This document shows positions 2,586-12,140 of a DNA stretch of 46,657 nt, in pieces. Position 1 is the first letter of the stretch. Every line of letters begins with the position of its first letter. The DNA lies in the UHGV virus genome UHGV-0180138; one strand, given 5' to 3'. The notes below the pieces were generated by a model. The model was not told where the DNA came from and did no database searches. It saw only the letters and a program-made list of their open reading frames with translations. Position numbers and translations under genes: made by a program. This stretch comes from a virus.

Positions 2586-3247
2586 AAACAGAGTTACATA
2601 AAAAACTATGGACGATTCAGCAAACGCTGAACGCGCCGAAGAATCAGCGTAATAATTTTGGCGGGTATAATTACAGGTCGGCGGAGGATATTTTAGAGGC
2701 GGTTAAACCACTGCTTCAAAATATCACGCTGACTGTTAGTGATGAAATTGTCCTGATCGGCAATCGCTATTATGTGAAAGCTACGGCGACGCTAAGCGAC
2801 GGTGAAGACGTAATAGCGGTAACTGCTTATGCCAGGGAGGAAGAAAGCAAGAAGGGTATGGATGCCAGCCAGCTAACAGGAGCAACATCAAGTTACGCGC
2901 GGAAATATGCTTTGAACGGTTTATTCTGCATAGATGATGCTCGCGATCCTGATACTGATGCTTACGCGAAGCAGACAGGCCAGCAGCCGCGACAACAGAA
3001 AAACCCACCAAAACAACAACCTAAGCAGCAAGGGCAACAACAAGGTCAGCAGCCGAAAGCGCCGCCAAATCCTGATGAAGTGTTGGCGCGTTTCTGTGAT
3101 GCGGCAGCGAAAGCGCCGGACGCTAACAAGTTGCGCGAGATCTTCGGCAAGTGCTGGAAGCTACTGCCTAAAGATTCAGAACAGCAACAGAAAGCGAAAG
3201 ACGTTTATGACATTCGCTTAAAAGAAATTAACGGGGAGATCAGTTAA
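2582..3247 (+). CDS. erf: Erf-family single-strand annealing protein
   Basis: 221 aa; GATSSYARKYALNGLF motif typical of Erf family; GTG start with AAGGAG SD; Gln/Pro-rich linker before C-terminal domain. Confidence 0.8.
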   Translation: MKTELHKKLWTIQQTLNAPKNQRNNFGGYNYRSAEDILEAVKPLLQNITLTVSDEIVLIGNRYYVKATATLSDGEDVIAVTAYAREEESKKGMDASQLTGATSSYARKYALNGLFCIDDARDPDTDAYAKQTGQQPRQQKNPPKQQPKQQGQQQGQQPKAPPNPDEVLARFCDAAAKAPDANKLREIFGKCWKLLPKDSEQQQKAKDVYDIRLKEINGEIS

Positions 3248-3654
3248 TGAGTTTAAATTCAATTACGCTGGGCGGGAATATCGGTAATGATATGGAGGTT
3301 CGCTACACGCAAAACGGAAAAGCGATTGGTAGTTTTCCGTTAGCTGTAACGAATGGCTACGGCGATAATAAGCGGACAATGTGGGTCACTTGCCTGGTAT
3401 TTGGCGAGCGTGCGGAAAAATTAGCGCCACATATCCGCAAGGGTGGGAAAATTGTTGTAAGCGGTCGCCTGGATGTTCGGCAATATGACCGGAACGACGG
3501 CACAAAAGGGACGGCGGTTGAAGTGGCGGTTAACGAATTCGAATTTATGAACGTTAACCAACAGGGCCAGCAGCAGAAAGCGCCACCGCCGCAGCAGAAT
3601 AATAACGGGAATAATCCGCCACCGATGGACTTCGATGACGATATCCCGTTCTGA
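3247..3654 (+). CDS. ssb: single-stranded DNA-binding protein
   Basis: 135 aa; OB-fold N-terminal region, Gln/Pro-rich linker and acidic tail DFDDDIPF diagnostic of SSB. Confidence 0.9.
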   Translation: MSLNSITLGGNIGNDMEVRYTQNGKAIGSFPLAVTNGYGDNKRTMWVTCLVFGERAEKLAPHIRKGGKIVVSGRLDVRQYDRNDGTKGTAVEVAVNEFEFMNVNQQGQQQKAPPPQQNNNGNNPPPMDFDDDIPF

Positions 3655-3669
3655 TTAAATAGGTTAGCG

Positions 3670-3948
3670 ATGGGTGATTATTTAAAAGCGCCACCGCCAC
3701 CACGAACAAAAGAGCAAGTATTAAAAGAAGCCCGTGATCAAATCGATCATGGGCTTTTTTTATGCGGCACGGCAGCGGATCGGATGGCAAAAAGATTTAG
3801 TGACCTGTACGCAAAGCAAATATGGTTCGACAACTGGCAGGCAAGTTTTTACCCACTACAGAAAGCTGATGATATGCATTGGCCTGAATATGTCGATCCA
3901 CGTATGCGCAAATATCGCGGGCGTATGGGCCAGGTTATTAACGATTAA
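3670..3948 (+). CDS. hypothetical protein
   Basis: 92-aa ORF in gene train. Confidence 0.5.
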   Translation: MGDYLKAPPPPRTKEQVLKEARDQIDHGLFLCGTAADRMAKRFSDLYAKQIWFDNWQASFYPLQKADDMHWPEYVDPRMRKYRGRMGQVIND

Positions 3949-3961
3949 TGAGGTGTTAATC

Positions 3962-4213
3962 ATGACAGCTACAACATTAAGCGAAAATAACGGTAGAGGT
4001 TTTCAGAGAACTGCGGAAAGCCTTGATGATAGTGATGTATTTGTTGATTTCGGCGGCGGCAACTATGAATTCGAAACGTCTGCGGGCTGGGTTGATAAAT
4101 GGCCTTTCCCTACTCGACAGGAATTAAGCGAACGTAAATCATTTGGCGAAGATGCCGAACGCCTGGCGAATAATAAATGGTTGGATAGATTTATTTCGGA
4201 GGCTGAAAAATGA
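3962..4213 (+). CDS. hypothetical protein
   Basis: Start moved to ATG 3962 (SD GAGGTG) within track ORF 3734-4213. Confidence 0.5.
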   Translation: MTATTLSENNGRGFQRTAESLDDSDVFVDFGGGNYEFETSAGWVDKWPFPTRQELSERKSFGEDAERLANNKWLDRFISEAEK

Positions 4214-4323
4214 ACATAATCAAAATAGCAGCGTTATCCGCTGGAGTTGCAATAGCTGTTGCTTATCTTGCGGCTTCTCTTTATATCACGGTAGCGATCA
4301 TAAAACTGATTACTAATATGTGA
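4210..4323 (+). CDS. small single-helix membrane peptide (37 aa)
   Basis: MNIIKIAALSAGVAIAVAYLAASLYITVAIIKLITNM; ATGA start/stop overlap with upstream gene. Confidence 0.4.
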   Translation: MNIIKIAALSAGVAIAVAYLAASLYITVAIIKLITNM

Positions 4324-4331
4324 GGTTAATC

Positions 4332-4451
4332 ATGAAAGTCGGTAAGGATATTGTGACGGTCGCGTTTTGCGTTATTTGTTTTCTGTTTACGATTGTATTT
4401 TGCGGAGCACTTGCTGCGGTATTGGCTTTTATTGGTAAGGGGGTGATGTGA
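4332..4451 (+). CDS. small single-helix membrane peptide (39 aa)
   Basis: MKVGKDIVTVAFCVICFLFTIVFCGALAAVLAFIGKGVM; SD GAGG; stop overlaps next start. Confidence 0.4.
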   Translation: MKVGKDIVTVAFCVICFLFTIVFCGALAAVLAFIGKGVM

Positions 4452-4723
4452 TGGTTACTTGGAATGTAAAAGAGGGAGATCTTGTTGTTTTGCCTGAATA
4501 TCGTAGTGACCCTGGTCTGGTTGTGCTGAACAAGACATATAACGATCTTGAGCGCCCGATCCTGGTTAAATATCTGGACGGAACAATTATAGAGCCGCGT
4601 TTCTTCGACAAGATTGAACTGAAGGCCCGCAATGTTCGCGTTAAGCCGTTCCGGGCTTATGCTGAAAACCACTGGCGGAAATTGTTCGCCGGACTGAATG
4701 GGATGTTTGGCGTATGGCTATAA
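4448..4723 (+). CDS. hypothetical protein
   Basis: 91-aa ORF; start GTG 4448 or ATG 4451. Confidence 0.5.
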   Translation: MMVTWNVKEGDLVVLPEYRSDPGLVVLNKTYNDLERPILVKYLDGTIIEPRFFDKIELKARNVRVKPFRAYAENHWRKLFAGLNGMFGVWL

Positions 4724-4905
4724 AAGAAGTAAAGGTTAAACACCTGAAAGGCGGGGAGCGCTTAAAGGCGTGGTGGGGCCGTGAATTTACAGCTACTGCT
4801 TTCAGATTCAGGCAAGGCGGAGAGGTCATTATATACGACGAAAACATGGATGAAGTTGGTAAATGGCATCTTGAGCAATACGTCGAGGTGTTAAATGAAA
4901 ATTAA
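4714..4905 (+). CDS. hypothetical protein
   Basis: 63-aa ORF in gene train. Confidence 0.45.
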   Translation: MAIKEVKVKHLKGGERLKAWWGREFTATAFRFRQGGEVIIYDENMDEVGKWHLEQYVEVLNEN

Positions 4906-6663: not shown

Positions 6664-6891
6664 ATGATGCGTGCACTTATTGACTTCATTATGGGCTGGC
6701 TATTTTGTTCTTTTTTTGTATTCTCATGTATAGCTACGGTTTTTATTGGAATTTTATGCGGTGTGTCTTTTGTTACATGGGAACTACCAGAAATGCCATC
6801 ACCTGATGATGCGCTTTATATGTTAAGGATCATTATTGCTGTTAGTGTATTTGTTGGGTTCTTTTTCGCTGATTCTACTGATGATTTATGA
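6664..6891 (+). CDS. hypothetical membrane protein
   Basis: Two predicted hydrophobic helices; start taken at ATG 6664 after SD GAGGA. Confidence 0.5.
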   Translation: MMRALIDFIMGWLFCSFFVFSCIATVFIGILCGVSFVTWELPEMPSPDDALYMLRIIIAVSVFVGFFFADSTDDL

Positions 6892-7126
6892 AATGGCTTT
6901 ATTTAACCTGTCAGAGCCGCAATTTAACGCCGTAAAAACTGCCGCGCGTGCGGCGCTTTCTGCCTGCAAAACGGAGGTAGAAAGAAACGGCTACAGCGAT
7001 AAAGCTACGCGGCTGATATTAGAAAAGCATTATCGCAAGGTCGCCCCGCTAATCAGTATTGAGCGTTTTGTGTGGTTGGTGGGGTATCTGAATAACCGCT
7101 GGGGAACAGATCAGGATTATTTCTAA
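6881..7126 (+). CDS. hypothetical protein
   Basis: ORF; start uncertain (ATG 6881 or 6893). Confidence 0.4.
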   Translation: MIYEMALFNLSEPQFNAVKTAARAALSACKTEVERNGYSDKATRLILEKHYRKVAPLISIERFVWLVGYLNNRWGTDQDYF

Positions 7127-7135
7127 GGGGGCGTA

Positions 7136-7675
7136 ATGAAAAATGATTACGGCGGCAGCCATACGCCGAAAGAAATAAAGGACTTATGGCAAACGCCAAA
7201 ACCCGTTTTTAGAGGAATGGATCGTGAATTCGAATTCGTCGCGGACGTGGCGGCAAACAAGGCAAACGCATTAATCCCGCGATATATAACCGAAGAAATG
7301 GACACGCTGCATTATCCGTGGGGAGCGGTGGCAATGCCTGGTGAGTATGTCTGGCTTAATCCGCCATATTCGAATCCGGGGCCATTCGTTGATAAGGCAG
7401 CGATGGAACATCACCGAAATCATATTGGCTGTGTAATGTTGTTGCCCGCTGATATCTCTGTTGGCTGGTTTATGAACGGCGTGGAGACGGCAAACGAATG
7501 CCGATTAATCACGCGCGGGCGGCTGGCGTTTATCAATGCTGCGACAGGGAAACCAGCAAGCGGAAACAATAAGGGTAGCTTGTTTTTGATCTGGCATCCA
7601 CGGTGCAGACATGAATGTATTTTCACGCAGATAACACGTAAAGAGCTATATGCAAGAGGTGCAGAAAATGAGTAA
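7136..7675 (+). CDS. phage Dam-like DNA N6-adenine methyltransferase
   Basis: 179 aa; DLWQTP near N-terminus and NPPYS catalytic motif, typical of phage Dam-type MTases. Confidence 0.8.
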   Translation: MKNDYGGSHTPKEIKDLWQTPKPVFRGMDREFEFVADVAANKANALIPRYITEEMDTLHYPWGAVAMPGEYVWLNPPYSNPGPFVDKAAMEHHRNHIGCVMLLPADISVGWFMNGVETANECRLITRGRLAFINAATGKPASGNNKGSLFLIWHPRCRHECIFTQITRKELYARGAENE

Positions 7676-8180
7676 AGCGGCTGAATTGCTGAGACTTGCG
7701 GCTGAAACTATCGAGGCAAGAGGGGGACAAAACGGATACGATCGAAAAGAAGAAAAATCAGCGCCAAAAATAGCGGCTATTTTCAACGCTAAGATGAATG
7801 CAAATTTGACCCCGCTTGATGTATGGGATCTAATGATTTGCCTCAAGGAAGCGCGTTTAGGGGCTATTCTCGCTAATGGAACTGATCCGCTCGACACTCT
7901 TATAGACCTTATTGCTTATAACGCGCTTAAGGCCGAACAAATATTAACGGAGCGGGAGGAAGAGCAAAAGAAAAAACAGGGCGTTTTTGATCTCCCTATC
8001 GGTGGATTGAAGAAAACTTTTGCTGACCTTGCCGGACCAGAACCATCTATTGTACCGGGGACAATCCCACCCGTGATGTTTAACGGTGGTGAGATTACTA
8101 ATCGGCTTGATGTGAAGTTTGACAACGAATCGCTATTACGCGCGGCGGGGTATCATAAAAATGGAAAGGGTGACAATTGA
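7668..8180 (+). CDS. hypothetical protein
   Basis: ATG 7668 with SD GAGGTG; overlaps Dam stop. Confidence 0.55.
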   Translation: MSKAAELLRLAAETIEARGGQNGYDRKEEKSAPKIAAIFNAKMNANLTPLDVWDLMICLKEARLGAILANGTDPLDTLIDLIAYNALKAEQILTEREEEQKKKQGVFDLPIGGLKKTFADLAGPEPSIVPGTIPPVMFNGGEITNRLDVKFDNESLLRAAGYHKNGKGDN

Positions 8181-8664
8181 CAGGTTATTAGCCTGCGTTT
8201 ATGTCGCCGTTTTTGTGATCATCAATCTTATTGTTAATCATTGCGGCCCGTGGGTAATTCCGATCACCACGGTAGCCGCCGTGTGTGTCAATATGATGAT
8301 CCGTGACCTCCTGTTATATGACGGCGGCCTGAAATGGTCGGCTACAACATGCGCCGCCGCTGGCGCAATCACGGTGCTGATAAATTACGACGCCGGAATG
8401 GTGGCGATCGCGTCATTCGTCGCGGTTGTTTCCGGTGCGCTTATTTCTGGCGGCGTTTACCGGGTTTTGCCTGGTGGCTTTGATTCTAAACGTTGGCCTG
8501 CAAATATAGCTTCAGCCATTGGTGATGCGTTAATTTTCCCGACGCTATCGTTTATGGCATTTATGCCGGAAATATCAGCTATGCAATTCATCTCAAAAAT
8601 GGCAGCGGTAACGGTGATTACTATCATCATGCGCCGCTATTTCACGTTTGAGGGCAGAAAATGA
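8161..8664 (+). CDS. multi-pass membrane protein, possible YhhQ/VUT-type transporter
   Basis: About five hydrophobic segments; loose resemblance to queuosine-precursor transporter family; assignment weak. Confidence 0.45.
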   Translation: MERVTIDRLLACVYVAVFVIINLIVNHCGPWVIPITTVAAVCVNMMIRDLLLYDGGLKWSATTCAAAGAITVLINYDAGMVAIASFVAVVSGALISGGVYRVLPGGFDSKRWPANIASAIGDALIFPTLSFMAFMPEISAMQFISKMAAVTVITIIMRRYFTFEGRK

Positions 8665-9188
8665 ATTGGGATGATTATTTTATATACAATCCGGACACGG
8701 GTAAGTTGTACTGGAAATATAGAAATGACATAGAAGAATCAAGGCGTAAACAATGGAATGCGTGTAATGCTGGTCATGAAGTTGGGCATATTGGCGGAAG
8801 CGGTGGGTATCTTAATACAACGCTTACCGTGGGTGGAAAGCGTTATAATTTAAAGGTGCATAGAATATGTTACGAGATGTACTATGGACCAATACCTGAA
8901 GGTAAGGAGGTTGATCATATAAATCACGTTAAAACAGATAATCGAGCCATCAATCTTGGATTAAAAGACCATAAAGATAATATGCGCAACATGTCTTTAA
9001 TGGTAAACAATACCAGTGGGTGCGCTGGTATCCATAAAAATAAACATGGTAAATGGGTTGTTAGAATCGGTGGAGGCAAAAGAGGTAATAGAATTTATAT
9101 AGGGTGTTTTTCTGATATTAATGACGCAATAAAAGCTAGGCGCGACGCTGAAAAAGAGTATGGCTATCATGAAAATCACGGCAAATAG
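8661..9188 (+). CDS. HNH endonuclease (HNH_3 + AP2-like domain)
   Basis: VHRICYEMYYGPIPEGKEVDHINHVKTDNRAINL HNH motif; paralog of 21849-22352. Confidence 0.75.
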   Translation: MNWDDYFIYNPDTGKLYWKYRNDIEESRRKQWNACNAGHEVGHIGGSGGYLNTTLTVGGKRYNLKVHRICYEMYYGPIPEGKEVDHINHVKTDNRAINLGLKDHKDNMRNMSLMVNNTSGCAGIHKNKHGKWVVRIGGGKRGNRIYIGCFSDINDAIKARRDAEKEYGYHENHGK

Positions 9189-9879
9189 AACGGCTTATTC
9201 AATGTTTGATGGATCTGGAATCATGCTTCTTGAGTATGCGAAGGCTGGTTATCAGTGCTATTGTTTTAATGCTGATGAGGGCAATCATGGTGAATATTTT
9301 ATTAAAATGAAACATAAAAATTTGCATTATGTGAATATATGGATTGATGAAAATTTTATTGATAACATCATCAAAATGGATATCCAGAAGCCTGATATTG
9401 TATTTGGCTTTCCAGACTGTACTATGTTTGCGCAGTCTGGTAGTAAACATGTTCGTGATAATAACGATGTTATGGTGGCGCTAAAAAATGCAATCATGGT
9501 TGAAAGTGTAGGTAATTATTTTGGTGTTCCGTGGATGGCTGAAAATCCTGTAGGAAGACTGTCAACATTATGGCGCAAGCCAGATTTTTATTTTAATCCG
9601 CGTGATTTCGGTAATTATCTTGATGAATCTGATGGATCGTTTCATCCAAAAATGCCGTTGAAGGATGGGTATACCAAAAAAACAGCTATTTGGCATGGCA
9701 ACGGATTTATTGAGCCTAAGCGCAATCCTTTAAGCGACAATGAAGGTGTGATGTTTTTTTGGGGTTGGCGATGGTTAGGAGGCAAATCAGCAAAGACAAA
9801 ACAGCTTCGTTCACTCACACCGCGCGGCTTTGCCCGTGCTGTATTCCTGGCTAACCATGACCGCGTTTTACCGGACTAA
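9160..9879 (+). CDS. short DNA cytosine-C5 methyltransferase-like protein
   Basis: 239 aa; motif I-like FDGSGIM, motif IV-like GFPDCTMFAQSG (cf. GFPCQ), motif VI-like ENPVG (cf. ENV); unusually short, no obvious target-recognition domain. Confidence 0.5.
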   Translation: MAIMKITANRTAYSMFDGSGIMLLEYAKAGYQCYCFNADEGNHGEYFIKMKHKNLHYVNIWIDENFIDNIIKMDIQKPDIVFGFPDCTMFAQSGSKHVRDNNDVMVALKNAIMVESVGNYFGVPWMAENPVGRLSTLWRKPDFYFNPRDFGNYLDESDGSFHPKMPLKDGYTKKTAIWHGNGFIEPKRNPLSDNEGVMFFWGWRWLGGKSAKTKQLRSLTPRGFARAVFLANHDRVLPD

Positions 9880-9880
9880 A

Positions 9881-9961
9881 GTTTACAAAATGGCGTCATT
9901 GCGTGATGCGGATCACATAATGGCGCTTTTTGCCTTGTTTTGGGGTATCCATTTTGTATAC
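9881..9961. promoter_or_regulatory. inverted pair of conserved motif (GTTTACAAAATGGCG at 9881-9895 plus; GTATACAAAATGGA at 9961-9948 minus)
   Basis: Direct reading; intergenic gap after methyltransferase gene. Confidence 0.5.
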
Positions 9962-10038
9962 TTCAAGCAAACAAAATGCTCTTTAAAAATCCGGCAGCGC
10001 TGAAATGCGTAGAAATCACCTGAAAAGGAGAGAGCATT

Positions 10039-10215
10039 ATGTCTTTTGATGATTACCAATGGCATGACGACTATGAACGAGAAAGCGTCATGCGTGCAAT
10101 GTGCAATGTATGCAGCACGAAGAAAGGAGGCTGTAACGAGTGCAACGAATGCTTAGATCATTGGCTAAGGGCCGGACACGCCGAAAGGCTGAACGAAACA
10201 GAGAATCAAAAATAA
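10039..10215 (+). CDS. small Cys-rich protein (58 aa), zinc-ribbon-like
   Basis: ATG with SD AAGGAGAG; CNVCSTKKGGCNECNEC; below track cutoff. Confidence 0.4.
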   Translation: MSFDDYQWHDDYERESVMRAMCNVCSTKKGGCNECNECLDHWLRAGHAERLNETENQK

Positions 10216-10229
10216 TCGGGGTGGTTTTT

Positions 10230-10835
10230 ATGCAAAACCCTAAAAAACCCATAAGACGCCGTTGCAAATGCTGCGGCGTTTTTTTTGAGCCTAAATATCA
10301 CAATCAAACGTGGTGCAGCGATGAATGTCTGGAAGAACTGAAGTTTGATCAGCTATGTCGCGACCGTGAGAAGGCTATGAAGGCTATGGAGCGGAAGAAA
10401 CGCCGGGATAGCCAGCGTGAAGAACGCAACCGGAAGCGTAAACAGTTAAATCCGCGTAGTTATTGGTTAAAGCAGGCGCAATCGGTATTTAATGCATATA
10501 TCCGCGAACGCGACGCGGGTCAGCCGTGTATATCTTGCGGGACTTATTACGGCGATCAGTGTTCCTGGGATGCCGGGCACTATAGAACGGTTGCTGCCGC
10601 AGGGCACCTTCGTTTTAACGAAGATAACTGCCATCGCCAATGCAGGCACTGCAACCAGACATTAGACGGCAACATAGCAGCTTATCGCCCTGCACTGATT
10701 AGAAAAATTGGCCTCGCCAGGGTGGAAGCGCTGGAGAACAACAACGATACGCATAAATGGACGATCGAAGAATGTAAAGAGATTATAAAAATCTATCAGG
10801 CGAAATTGGACGCCTTAAGGAGAAAGGCAGCATGA
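10230..10835 (+). CDS. ninG: NinG/Rap-family recombination endonuclease
   Basis: Strong similarity pattern to lambda NinG (CISCG...WDAGHYRT...LRFNE...HRWTIEECK); start at in-frame ATG 10230 within track ORF. Confidence 0.8.
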   Translation: MQNPKKPIRRRCKCCGVFFEPKYHNQTWCSDECLEELKFDQLCRDREKAMKAMERKKRRDSQREERNRKRKQLNPRSYWLKQAQSVFNAYIRERDAGQPCISCGTYYGDQCSWDAGHYRTVAAAGHLRFNEDNCHRQCRHCNQTLDGNIAAYRPALIRKIGLARVEALENNNDTHKWTIEECKEIIKIYQAKLDALRRKAA

Positions 10836-11239
10836 ATGAATATTCTTTTAGCCTGCCTTACCCGCCATCGAATAACCGCTATTACCGACATTCGCGCGGT
10901 TTTCACTATATCAGCAAAGTGGGGAAGGAATACCGGGAACAAGTAAAAGACATCATCGAATTATTAAATTTAGACATTAACCTATCTTGCCGACTGGCAA
11001 TCGCCATTTATGCCGCGCCGCCGGATAACCGGATCAGAGATCTGGATAATATCCCAAAATGCCTTTTTGACAGCCTTACTTACGCCGGATTCTGGACTGA
11101 CGACGGACAAATCGACTCAATAAAAATTGTACGCTGCCGGAAGGTAAAAGGCGGGCGATTGTTTATCAAGGTACGCGAACGCGGCGACCTGCTACCGGAT
11201 ATTGACGAATACGCGACCAATATGTGGAGTGAGCAATGA
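10832..11239 (+). CDS. rusA: Holliday junction resolvase RusA
   Basis: PYPPSNNRYYRHSRG and DLDNIPKCLFDSLTYAGFWTDDGQI match RusA. Confidence 0.85.
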   Translation: MNEYSFSLPYPPSNNRYYRHSRGFHYISKVGKEYREQVKDIIELLNLDINLSCRLAIAIYAAPPDNRIRDLDNIPKCLFDSLTYAGFWTDDGQIDSIKIVRCRKVKGGRLFIKVRERGDLLPDIDEYATNMWSEQ

Positions 11240-11418
11240 AAAACGAAGTTAAAGATCTGCAAATAGATATTCAGCGCGACGAACGTGATTTAGAGACGGT
11301 CCGACAAATCCAGGCTTTCCACATGCGCGAATTACTTGCGCTGAAAGAGTTTGAAAGAAAGCTGGTGCAATCCATTTCTGATCGTAAATGCCTTATTGCT
11401 CGTTACGGGGGGAAATAA
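11236..11418 (+). CDS. hypothetical protein
   Basis: 60-aa ORF. Confidence 0.45.
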   Translation: MKNEVKDLQIDIQRDERDLETVRQIQAFHMRELLALKEFERKLVQSISDRKCLIARYGGK

Positions 11419-12140
11419 TGAATTTAGAATCCATTCTGAAATTCCACTTCCCAAAATCACCGCGATTATCAGACGAAAGCCGGGGAACATCACCTGATGC
11501 ACTTAATACTACTGATGCGCTTACCGCCGCTGGTATGGCGCAATCGCGCGTAGAGCTTGGTTATAGCGCTTTTCTAGGGAAGATGGAACTATCACAAGCC
11601 GAAAAACACAGGGCCGTAGTTTTGCTTACAGAGCGTTTAAGAGCTATGGCAAAAGATTACGAATACGTCATGGAACTGGAGGAGAGCCAGCGCAATGATT
11701 TTATTATTCTTGTTGCCGTTTTCGCGTTTCGGGATTATTGCCAAAGCGCCGCGACGGAAAAAACTTGTATGGAGTGCGGCGGATATAAATTTACGTTTGA
11801 CGAATACGGAGAAAAACACCTTTGCAAAAAATGCAAGGGGCACGGGAAAGTTCGCAATCATTGTAAACAATGCAAGGGGCGCGGCGAGATACCGGATAAA
11901 ACAGCCAGCAATGCGGCAGAAATGCCAGTCTTCAAAACGTGCCAGCACTGTGGCGGGCGCGGGTACTCGCGTTTCCCGGTAGATCTCGTCCGGCAGGCTG
12001 TTAACCAGCTTGTTTTCCCGGTAAGCCGATCAACATGGTGGAAGAAATACAGGGTTTTCTATGAGGACGCCATAGCGGAGCTATTCAAAGAAGAAGCCCG
12101 CGCGGAAAGCGAAATCAAGCGAGTGACACGGGGTGAATAA
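11418..12140 (+). CDS. Q-like late regulator candidate with four CxxCxGxG zinc-finger repeats
   Basis: Follows ninG-rusA as Q does in lambdoid phages; CMECGG/CKKCKGHG/CKQCKGRG/CQHCGGRG; start ATG 11418 overlaps upstream stop; function inferred from position. Confidence 0.35.
   Translation: MNLESILKFHFPKSPRLSDESRGTSPDALNTTDALTAAGMAQSRVELGYSAFLGKMELSQAEKHRAVVLLTERLRAMAKDYEYVMELEESQRNDFIILVAVFAFRDYCQSAATEKTCMECGGYKFTFDEYGEKHLCKKCKGHGKVRNHCKQCKGRGEIPDKTASNAAEMPVFKTCQHCGGRGYSRFPVDLVRQAVNQLVFPVSRSTWWKKYRVFYEDAIAELFKEEARAESEIKRVTRGE

Follow-up and report, generated by a model that had tools for sequence, protein, structure and literature searches.

Orphan methyltransferase genes, a short VUT/YhhQ-family membrane protein and a mosaic HNH–dcm cassette in a gene block of an mEp021-like phage

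Introduction

Positions 7136–9879 of virus genome UHGV-0180138 (46,657 nucleotides; this whole stretch is hereafter the window) encode, on one strand, a Dam-like N6-adenine methyltransferase, a DUF6378 protein, a membrane protein, an HNH endonuclease and a 239-residue Dcm-like protein. By megablast, the region is related to the temperate, Nus-dependent coliphage mEp021 and to kindred Escherichia coli prophages. The mEp021 record already names the run, in the same gene order as in the window, as ipe, a ‘putative DNA N-6 adenine methyltransferase’, a hypothetical protein, a ‘putative membrane protein (6 TM)’ and a ‘putative DNA cytosine methyltransferase’, followed by a terminator, ninF, ninG and rusA. 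nutR2 lies downstream of the methyltransferase gene in this phage (PMC11893012).

The short cytosine methyltransferases of phages have an experimental anchor in a bioRxiv study of retron Ec86, in which escape mutants of phage K42 carried lesions in a 711-bp ‘dcm’ gene (4 of 4 escapers). We located the same 711-bp gene in KarlJaspers (Bas06), a BASEL phage with 95% identity to K42. According to the bioRxiv study, expression of K42 Dcm is toxic only when retron Ec86 is present, and liquid chromatography–mass spectrometry found high 5-methylcytosine (5mC) on the multicopy single-stranded DNA (msDNA) with wild-type K42 Dcm and not with a C82A/E128A/K175A/K176A mutant. The defence was lost when the CCTGG site in the msDNA was changed; the CCWGG specificity of K42 Dcm is drawn from analogy with host Dcm and from the msDNA mutants rather than from direct mapping. 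The published version, as cited by later papers, states that methylation of msDNA by a phage cytosine methyltransferase activates the effector. For the membrane protein, the described counterpart is E. coli YhhQ, which transports preQ0 and preQ1 (Zallot 2017, as cited by another paper).

An initial annotation of the window, made from the sequence alone, had read four of the five genes together as an anti-restriction genome-modification module. Here we compare each gene with its relatives. The block is probably an accessory (nin-like) part of an mEp021-like early rightward operon, in which several independent elements stand side by side and do not form one machine; Dam and Dcm are probably independent orphan methyltransferases that methylate the phage's own DNA, with the remaining genes as neighbours and not as parts.

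Results

Gene content of the block

The features of the block are as follows.

7136–7675, + strand: orphan phage N6-adenine DNA methyltransferase Dam, 179 residues (PF05869/TIGR01712; NPPY at residues 76–79)
7668–8180, + strand: DUF6378 protein, 170 residues (PF19905, E 3e-08; the ATG at 7668 overlaps the Dam stop codon)
8161–8664, + strand: short divergent VUT/YhhQ-family membrane protein, 167 residues, six helices (phrog_4899, E 7.3e-47)
8661–9188, + strand: free-standing HNH_3 homing-type endonuclease, 175 residues (HNH_3, E 1.7e-15), exactly at the transporter–dcm junction
8660–9845, + strand: mosaic cassette of Drexlerviridae type, comprising the HNH gene and most of dcm (about 76% nucleotide identity; pairwise blastn and DNA alignment)
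9160–9879, + strand: short phage Dcm-like C5-cytosine DNA methyltransferase, 239 residues (PHROG 757; alternative start at 9169)

The four genes first reported lie at or near the positions assigned to them, all on the + strand, and their strong profile matches distinguish them from chance open reading frames (ORFs). A fifth gene, encoding the DUF6378 protein and placed between those for Dam and the membrane protein, had been omitted. The cluster is real but not newly seen, the genes being already named in the mEp021 record and in RefSeq, and the two methylase genes, the transporter gene and the nuclease gene all fall into known, widespread phage families, which makes the find largely ordinary.

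The HNH–dcm cassette

The presence of a homing-endonuclease-like HNH gene between the two methylase genes, beside the membrane protein, is borne out by the HNH_3 match, by phrog_99 (‘HNH endonuclease’, E 2.5e-51) and by the PADLOC ‘homing endonuclease’ model (7.9e-8). The protein shares 73% identity with the HNH protein of the Drexlerviridae phage JLBYU19. Pairwise blastn delimits the segment that contains this gene. mEp021 aligns to 7000–8664 (84%) and to 9808–10300 (95%; 94.7% in the blastn alignment), with nothing between, and the MLI107 prophage has flanks that are 98% identical with the segment between them missing. Conversely, the Warwickvirus (Drexlerviridae) phages PeterMerian and JLBYU19 match exactly 8660–9845, at 76%. 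The right-hand junction of the cassette falls inside the conserved 3′ end of dcm (9808–9845). The window Dcm protein shares 86% identity with the JLBYU19 Dcm and only 49% with the mEp021 Dcm, and its last ~18 residues are of the mEp021 type. The cassette has replaced a resident mEp021-type dcm allele.

The HNH gene is missing in mEp021 and the MLI107 prophage, and therefore is not a required part of the proposed module; it is present in prophages RM9245 and STEC308 and in Warwickvirus phages. RM9245 carries the complete HNH–dcm arrangement, and the STEC308 prophage has kept the HNH gene and lost 9197–9849, that is, dcm. At the Drexlerviridae dcm locus, KarlJaspers has a P-P-C allele (Pro-Pro-Cys at the catalytic loop) and no HNH gene, and PeterMerian and JLBYU19 have an HNH gene and a P-D-C allele (Pro-Asp-Cys), which take the place of the P-P-C allele within flanks that are conserved. 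All three share an upstream 74-residue ORF (84–86% identical), which is annotated in Warwickvirus as ‘putative cytosine DNA methylase’. We considered it as a split-off fragment of Dcm and rejected this, as it is an unrelated conserved ORF that also occurs in the HNH-less KarlJaspers.

Free-standing phage homing endonucleases, such as those of the T4 seg and mob genes, spread by ‘intronless homing’ and co-convert flanking genes. The cassette is most simply read as the result of a homing-type nuclease that entered the dcm locus and, by co-conversion, would have brought its adjacent allele with it. HNH and most of dcm arrived together and overwrote the resident dcm, most likely through nuclease-stimulated recombination, with the HNH enzyme as the presumed driver. 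Since the cassette is common to virulent Drexlerviridae and temperate mEp021-like phages, it is a clean case of gene exchange across lifestyles, probably driven by the homing nuclease.

Three side observations concern these genes. The STEC306, STEC307 and STEC308 prophages (STEC308 at 3147–4066 of locus L014) retain Dam, DUF6378, the transporter and HNH and have precisely lost dcm, which is therefore dispensable in the mEp021-like backbone. A second HNH_3 gene, 36% identical to the first, is located at 21849–22352 of the window, between the small terminase (21336–21836, Sf6_terminase) and the large terminase (22336–23826); it could be a further homing-type nuclease that was inserted there, or else an HNH associated with the terminase. 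About 37 ‘Campylobacter phage’ records (MG0656xx) contain a Dcm allele whose identity to that of the window is 80% in nucleotides and 87% in protein. These records look like Drexlerviridae-type coliphages, which suggests that their C. jejuni host labels are wrong.

The 239-residue Dcm-like protein

The Dcm-like protein matches phrog_757 across residues 5–236 (E 2.8e-78). Its relatives comprise more than 2,100 homologues (E ≤ 1e-3), nearly all of 215–245 residues, and the family is found by tblastn in 1,487 phage genomes, which include Drexlerviridae, Dhillonvirus, rV5-like, phAPEC8-like, Klebsiella and other phages. The median length among the best 120 homologues is 227 residues. The description ‘atypically short’ therefore holds against canonical C5-methyltransferases and fails within the protein's own family. 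By its sequence, the protein is typical of PHROG 757, the known family of short phage Dcm proteins.

As first reported, the C5-methyltransferase-like motifs I (FDGSG), IV (FPDCT, with Asp before Cys) and VI (ENPVG) are present within the 239 residues. The catalytic residues are Cys87 (F-P-D-C-T), Glu128 (ENPVG) and Lys173/Lys174. Motif I (F16-D-G18-S-G20) and motif VI (E128-N129-P-V131) are kept across the family. In motif I, D17, G18 and S19 are invariant and G20 is near-invariant among 54 diverse members. The family alignment further shows conservation of P85-x-C87-T88, in which Cys87 is invariant; of N129-P130-(V131)-G132, invariant or near-invariant, with E128 at ≥ 90%; of Y171-x-K173-(K174)-T175, with K173 invariant and K174 at ≥ 90%; and of a C-terminal block, R217-S218-L-T220-P-x-G223-F-A-R-A227-V. 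Among the 120 closest cluster representatives, 86 carry Asp between the Pro and the catalytic Cys, 21 carry Ser and 11 carry Pro, so that the P-D-C arrangement, initially seen as an oddity, is the majority state. In a profile comparison that covers motif IV only (1.9% probability), Asp86 aligns with the Pro of the Pro-Cys pair (FPCQ) of E. coli Dcm.

The C-terminal RSLTPRGFARAV resembles motif IX of Dcm, RRLTPRECARLMGF, and is followed by 11 residues to the end of the protein. The absence of an obvious target-recognition domain is confirmed: a partly conserved insert of ~35 residues (181–215) occupies its place, between the motif VIII-like and IX-like blocks. No NCBIfam model matches the protein, and neither motif X nor an equivalent of R350 of the carboxymethyltransferase CmoX can be mapped by profile comparison of the family with E. 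coli Dcm. The fold comparison places the protein within the catalytic-domain fold of C5-methyltransferases. Of the two identities initially proposed, a minimal orphan methylase or a related nucleotide-modifying enzyme, the first is favored by this fold and by the homology to a Dcm with demonstrated 5mC activity.

That homologue is the KarlJaspers Dcm, with which the window protein shares 46% identity over 228 residues (BLASTP, E 3e-70); the residues C82, E128, K175 and K176 tested in K42 correspond to C87, E128, K173 and K174 of the window protein. Formation of 5mC dependent on S-adenosylmethionine (SAM) and triggering of retron Ec86 were established by others on this 46%-identical homologue; the present analysis itself establishes to which families the genes belong, the fold, the conservation of the catalytic residues and where the mosaic begins and ends. 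We infer that the P-D-C allele is active as a C5-cytosine methyltransferase. mEp021-like temperate phages that carry dcm are predicted to be sensed by retron Ec86/Eco1, whose defence is triggered by short phage Dcm proteins.

The membrane protein

The ORF of the membrane protein extends over 8119–8664; the likely start is the ATG at 8161, which RefSeq uses in relatives. The protein has 12 close homologues and 149 relatives in an exhaustive phmmer search. The Pfam family PF02592 (Vut_1, the YhhQ family) is matched by 64 of the 67 relatives tested, several of them above the gathering threshold, including the phmmer relatives P0138 (1.3e-16) and P0155 (1.4e-10). A profile search returned proteins named ‘VUT family protein’ or ‘queuosine precursor transporter’ by their sources. 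In a profile comparison, the family matches E. coli YhhQ with 89.7% probability (E 1.8e-6, 116 columns), and plain BLASTP against YhhQ is not significant. The AlphaFold model contains six helices (pLDDT 91), and a library of viral structures gives weak but consistent VUT matches, with a ‘Putative vitamin uptake transporter’ among the best. The protein keeps the residues that are invariant in its family. The loose resemblance to YhhQ-type transporters noted at first, for which a profile-level check had been proposed, is thus real but remote.

At the profile level, the membrane protein belongs to the VUT family, and its putative role is the import of 7-deazaguanine (queuosine) precursors, in which it would take up preQ0/preQ1-like bases. 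This gives a name, short VUT/YhhQ-family protein, to what mEp021-like phages carry as a ‘hypothetical membrane protein’.

Transporter neighbourhoods

tblastn detects transporter homologues in 21 phage records. In all nine phages fetched from outside the mEp021 group (PEAT2, Opt-719, AB3P2, LHE71, RCIP0319, Phc, Lg3, Flyfo Tbat1_6 and ECO111 5-P; loci L018–L026), the transporter gene abuts a DpdA-like gene (phrog_887, ‘queuine tRNA-ribosyltransferase’). The nine pairs form a clear gene-neighbourhood signature of 7-deazaguanine salvage and suggest that some phages, members of Tunavirus, Rogunavirinae and Eclunavirus among them, modify their DNA with salvaged 7-deazaguanines. The DpdA-like partners are small (243–275 residues in the four measured), the pairs are located at about 3000–4800 of their loci, and several are annotated merely as hypothetical proteins.

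In mEp021, the window and a diverged metagenomic relative (L010), the position of DpdA is held by the Dcm-like gene. A hidden Markov model built from four phage DpdA-like proteins found no DpdA-like ORF at E ≤ 10 among the ORFs of at least 50 residues of the window and the mEp021 left arm, and tblastn found no DpdA or tRNA-guanine transglycosylase (TGT) gene. Pfam scans of 10 ORFs from the mEp021 left arm and the early region of the window revealed no TGT domain; no 7-deazaguanine pathway gene was detected by these Pfam scans and the DpdA search. The window transporter is best regarded as an orphan; it could plausibly salvage preQ0/preQ1 for the queuosine of host tRNA, or be a remnant of a transporter–DpdA pair. 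In another metagenomic phage (L011 6001–7531, a temperate-phage-like contig from JGI), a short VUT gene is followed by a gene for a 283-residue protein of PHROG 9298 (‘radical SAM domain protein’). An identity of this neighbour as QueE was dropped, since Pfam gave no radical SAM support.

Dam, DUF6378 and the flanks of the block

Dam matches PF05869 over its full length (E 2.5e-51; 174 bits, cut-off 28) and the NCBIfam equivalog TIGR01712 (142 bits, cut-off 97), and its translation displays WLNPPYS, which upholds the call of a Dam-like N6-adenine methyltransferase with an NPPY motif. PADLOC classifies it as an ‘orphan methyltransferase’ (2.6e-24), and Pfam and PHROG scans revealed no restriction-enzyme gene near it among the window ORFs. 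M.EcoVT2Dam is presumably a member of the PF05869 family. The reported target of M.EcoVT2Dam is GATC. Judged by these matches, the window protein is an ordinary phage Dam, for which GATC specificity is assumed. Outside the window, the mEp021 left arm contains a third DNA methyltransferase gene (L009 2836–3573; N6_N4_Mtase, PF01555, E 4.8e-36) beside ninB in the leftward operon; phages of the mEp021 group therefore have at least three orphan methylases.

The start of the DUF6378 gene was chosen by analogy with RefSeq relatives. Its C-terminal extension (~7975–8158, roughly 60 residues) varies among relatives: the segment 7975–8158 is missing in the otherwise 98%-identical MLI107 prophage and in the 99-residue DUF6378 version of the metagenomic relative L010. 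No solved relative of DUF6378 was matched in the PDB, and a literature search yielded nothing on its function.

The block is flanked by two further features.

6893–7126, + strand: ipe (‘inducer of pleiotropic effects’) homologue by position, in the same place as ipe of mEp021 (mEp021_29) (phrog_303, E 1.8e-24)
9880–10038, + strand: intergenic region after dcm, 95–98% identical to mEp021-type phages, which closes the gene block before ninF/ninG

The ipe homologue, which has no Pfam match, lies directly 5′ of Dam; it is context only and no DNA-modification gene, and the literature ties ipe to haemolysis by lysogens. By homology, the predicted terminator t4 (TERM_4 of the mEp021 annotation) and the nutR2 region of mEp021 fall in 9880–10038. 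A promoter and terminator scan of 6700–10200 detected nothing above chance and did not pick up the terminator annotated in mEp021. Beyond this region, the block on the + strand continues to ninG (10140–10835), rusA (10832–11239) and a Q-type antiterminator (11388–12140).

Discussion

The reading that we prefer, independent elements in an accessory part of the early operon, comprises an orphan Dam, the DUF6378 protein, the short VUT/YhhQ inner-membrane transporter, the free-standing HNH homing-type nuclease and the short Dcm of PHROG 757. Dam and Dcm would methylate the phage genome and thereby blunt host restriction. The site counts of the whole window are enriched rather than depleted (CCWGG 101 versus 51 ± 6 expected from shuffles; GATC 204 versus 150 ± 13); these counts are typical of E. 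coli-like sequence and are non-diagnostic. Several points weigh against the preferred reading. P-D-C alleles without an adjacent HNH gene exist (records that match only 9193–9845), and the case for homing by the HNH enzyme is drawn from the mosaicism and the cassette boundaries. PF00145 scores the Dcm-like protein at 14.0 bits, below its gathering cut-off of 22 (residues 13–98 against profile positions 4–82), and no motif X, GN(S/A)V, is recognisable in it. Searches of the PDB sequences with the protein (phmmer) and with its family profile (hmmsearch) gave only chance matches and no methyltransferase, which is why the fold comparison was needed. The sole experimentally tested member of PHROG 757 is P-P-C and the window protein is P-D-C. 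The membrane protein has no direct match to PF02592, or to any Pfam family, at E ≤ 0.1. Finally, methyltransferase genes of Drexlerviridae showed no simple relation to resistance against restriction in the BASEL study, a result that also counts against a single module.

It is unlikely that the genes cooperate as a single anti-restriction module, with a substrate delivered by the transporter and the nuclease as one of its components. The appeal of such a module lies in the order Dam–DUF6378–transporter–Dcm, which is kept in mEp021-group phages and in the metagenomic relative L010 (transporter 54% identical), in the overlap of the transporter stop codon with the dcm start codon in mEp021, and in the location of the same transporter family next to the DNA-modifying enzyme DpdA in other phages. 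However, the components are each widespread on their own: the HNH gene is mobile and absent from the closest relatives, the Dcm-like genes of Drexlerviridae stand without an adjoining transporter or Dam in the loci inspected, the transporter usually sits beside DpdA, and the STEC308 prophages have lost dcm and kept the other genes. We also know of no C5-methyltransferase that needs an imported base, which counts against the module. On these grounds, the module first proposed is not supported. It is likewise improbable that the transporter is the key novelty and feeds a 7-deazaguanine pathway with a transglycosylase elsewhere (in the host or another prophage), which would give phage DNA with dPreQ-type bases in addition to methylation. 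The DpdA-like neighbour in nine of nine other phages, the family-invariant residues of the window protein and published work that ties phage YhhQ to preQ0 salvage would fit this idea. In contrast, no DpdA-like ORF or TGT domain was found in the scanned ORFs of the window and the mEp021 left arm, deletion of yhhQ in phage CAjan left the preQ0 modification unchanged, and Hutinet et al. noted that the YhhQ homologues of phages show no correlation with a particular group of modifications.

For the 239-residue protein itself, a C5-methyltransferase fold with a product other than 5mC, for example carboxymethylation from carboxy-SAM (Cx-SAM), a cofactor that E. coli produces, as in CmoX, or with a substrate other than double-stranded DNA, has a probability that we rate as quite low. 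K42 Dcm, which has the same C-terminal motif, produced 5mC in cells that contain Cx-SAM; moreover, the CmoX family is marked by SPPC and R350 and usually occurs with CmoA and CmoY, none of which is found in the window, where no residue is structurally established as the equivalent of CmoX R350. Arg226 was considered as the basis of a hypothetical cofactor switch. A catalytically dead P-D-C allele, retained as a DNA-binding protein or decoy or hitch-hiking with the HNH gene, is very improbable. It could be argued from the Asp in place of the Pro of the near-universal Pro-Cys dipeptide, from the PF00145 score below threshold and from the STEC308 prophages that do without dcm. However, Asp is the majority state, and Cys87, Asn129, Lys173 and DGS (17–19) are invariant, and Glu128 and Gly20 near-invariant, in the 54 diverse members; this conservation indicates purifying selection on the Dcm-like active site. 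We give the least credence to the suggestion that the transporter and the P-D-C Dcm are a pair that makes a base modification other than plain 5mC, with an imported or unusual substrate or cofactor. It is built on the VUT–dcm adjacency (translationally coupled in mEp021), the P-D-C loop, the lack of a recognisable motif X and the DpdA partner elsewhere; if true, it would mean a new DNA-modification route concealed in a family labelled ‘Dcm’. As a whole, the find is of little weight: it re-finds genes that were already named and are members of large families. Of modest value are the predicted sensing by retron Ec86/Eco1, the naming of the membrane protein with its DpdA pairing elsewhere, and the sharing of the HNH–dcm cassette across lifestyles.

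Comparison with known systems

The orphan Dam corresponds to the phage Dam enzymes of PF05869/TIGR01712 in its full-length match above curated cut-offs, its NPPY motif and its lack of a restriction partner, and nothing notable differs. The membrane protein, with 167 residues, is shorter than E. coli YhhQ (221 residues) and shares its size and six-helix layout with the short phage VUT proteins, to which it is 28–36% identical. In phage VUT–DpdA pairs, such as gp18–gp19 of Pectobacterium phage PEAT2 or that with yhhQ of phage CAjan, the partner is DpdA, whereas a Dcm-like methylase adjoins the transporter in the window. The HNH gene resembles the T4 seg/mob-type homing endonucleases as an HNH_3 ORF located between conserved genes, present or absent among near-identical relatives, with the flanking dcm co-replaced. 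It differs in that the donor-type dcm allele also occurs without HNH, and in that homing is read here from sequence mosaicism.

The Dcm-like protein shares the catalytic-domain fold of the canonical C5-methyltransferases of PF00145 (M.HhaI, E. coli Dcm and DNMT3A/B). Compared with these enzymes, it is 90–230 residues shorter, has ~35 residues in place of the target-recognition domain, has Asp for Pro before the catalytic Cys and KK for the RxR of motif VIII, and is without GN(S/A)V. CmoX, a phage DNA cytosine C5-carboxymethyltransferase (PDB code: 8yf3), is distinguished by SPPC, the cofactor-selecting Arg350 and the co-occurring CmoA/CmoY, which the window does not have. K42/KarlJaspers Dcm, the trigger of retron Ec86/Eco1, has a P-P-C loop and two small insertions (5 and 2 residues), in contrast to the P-D-C loop of the window protein, which belongs to a Warwickvirus-type subfamily. 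Both are members of PHROG 757 with similar lengths (236 and 239 residues), stand alone without a restriction-enzyme partner, and have in common motif I DGSG, the catalytic Cys, ENPVG, the KK pair and the C-terminal TPRGFARAVF.

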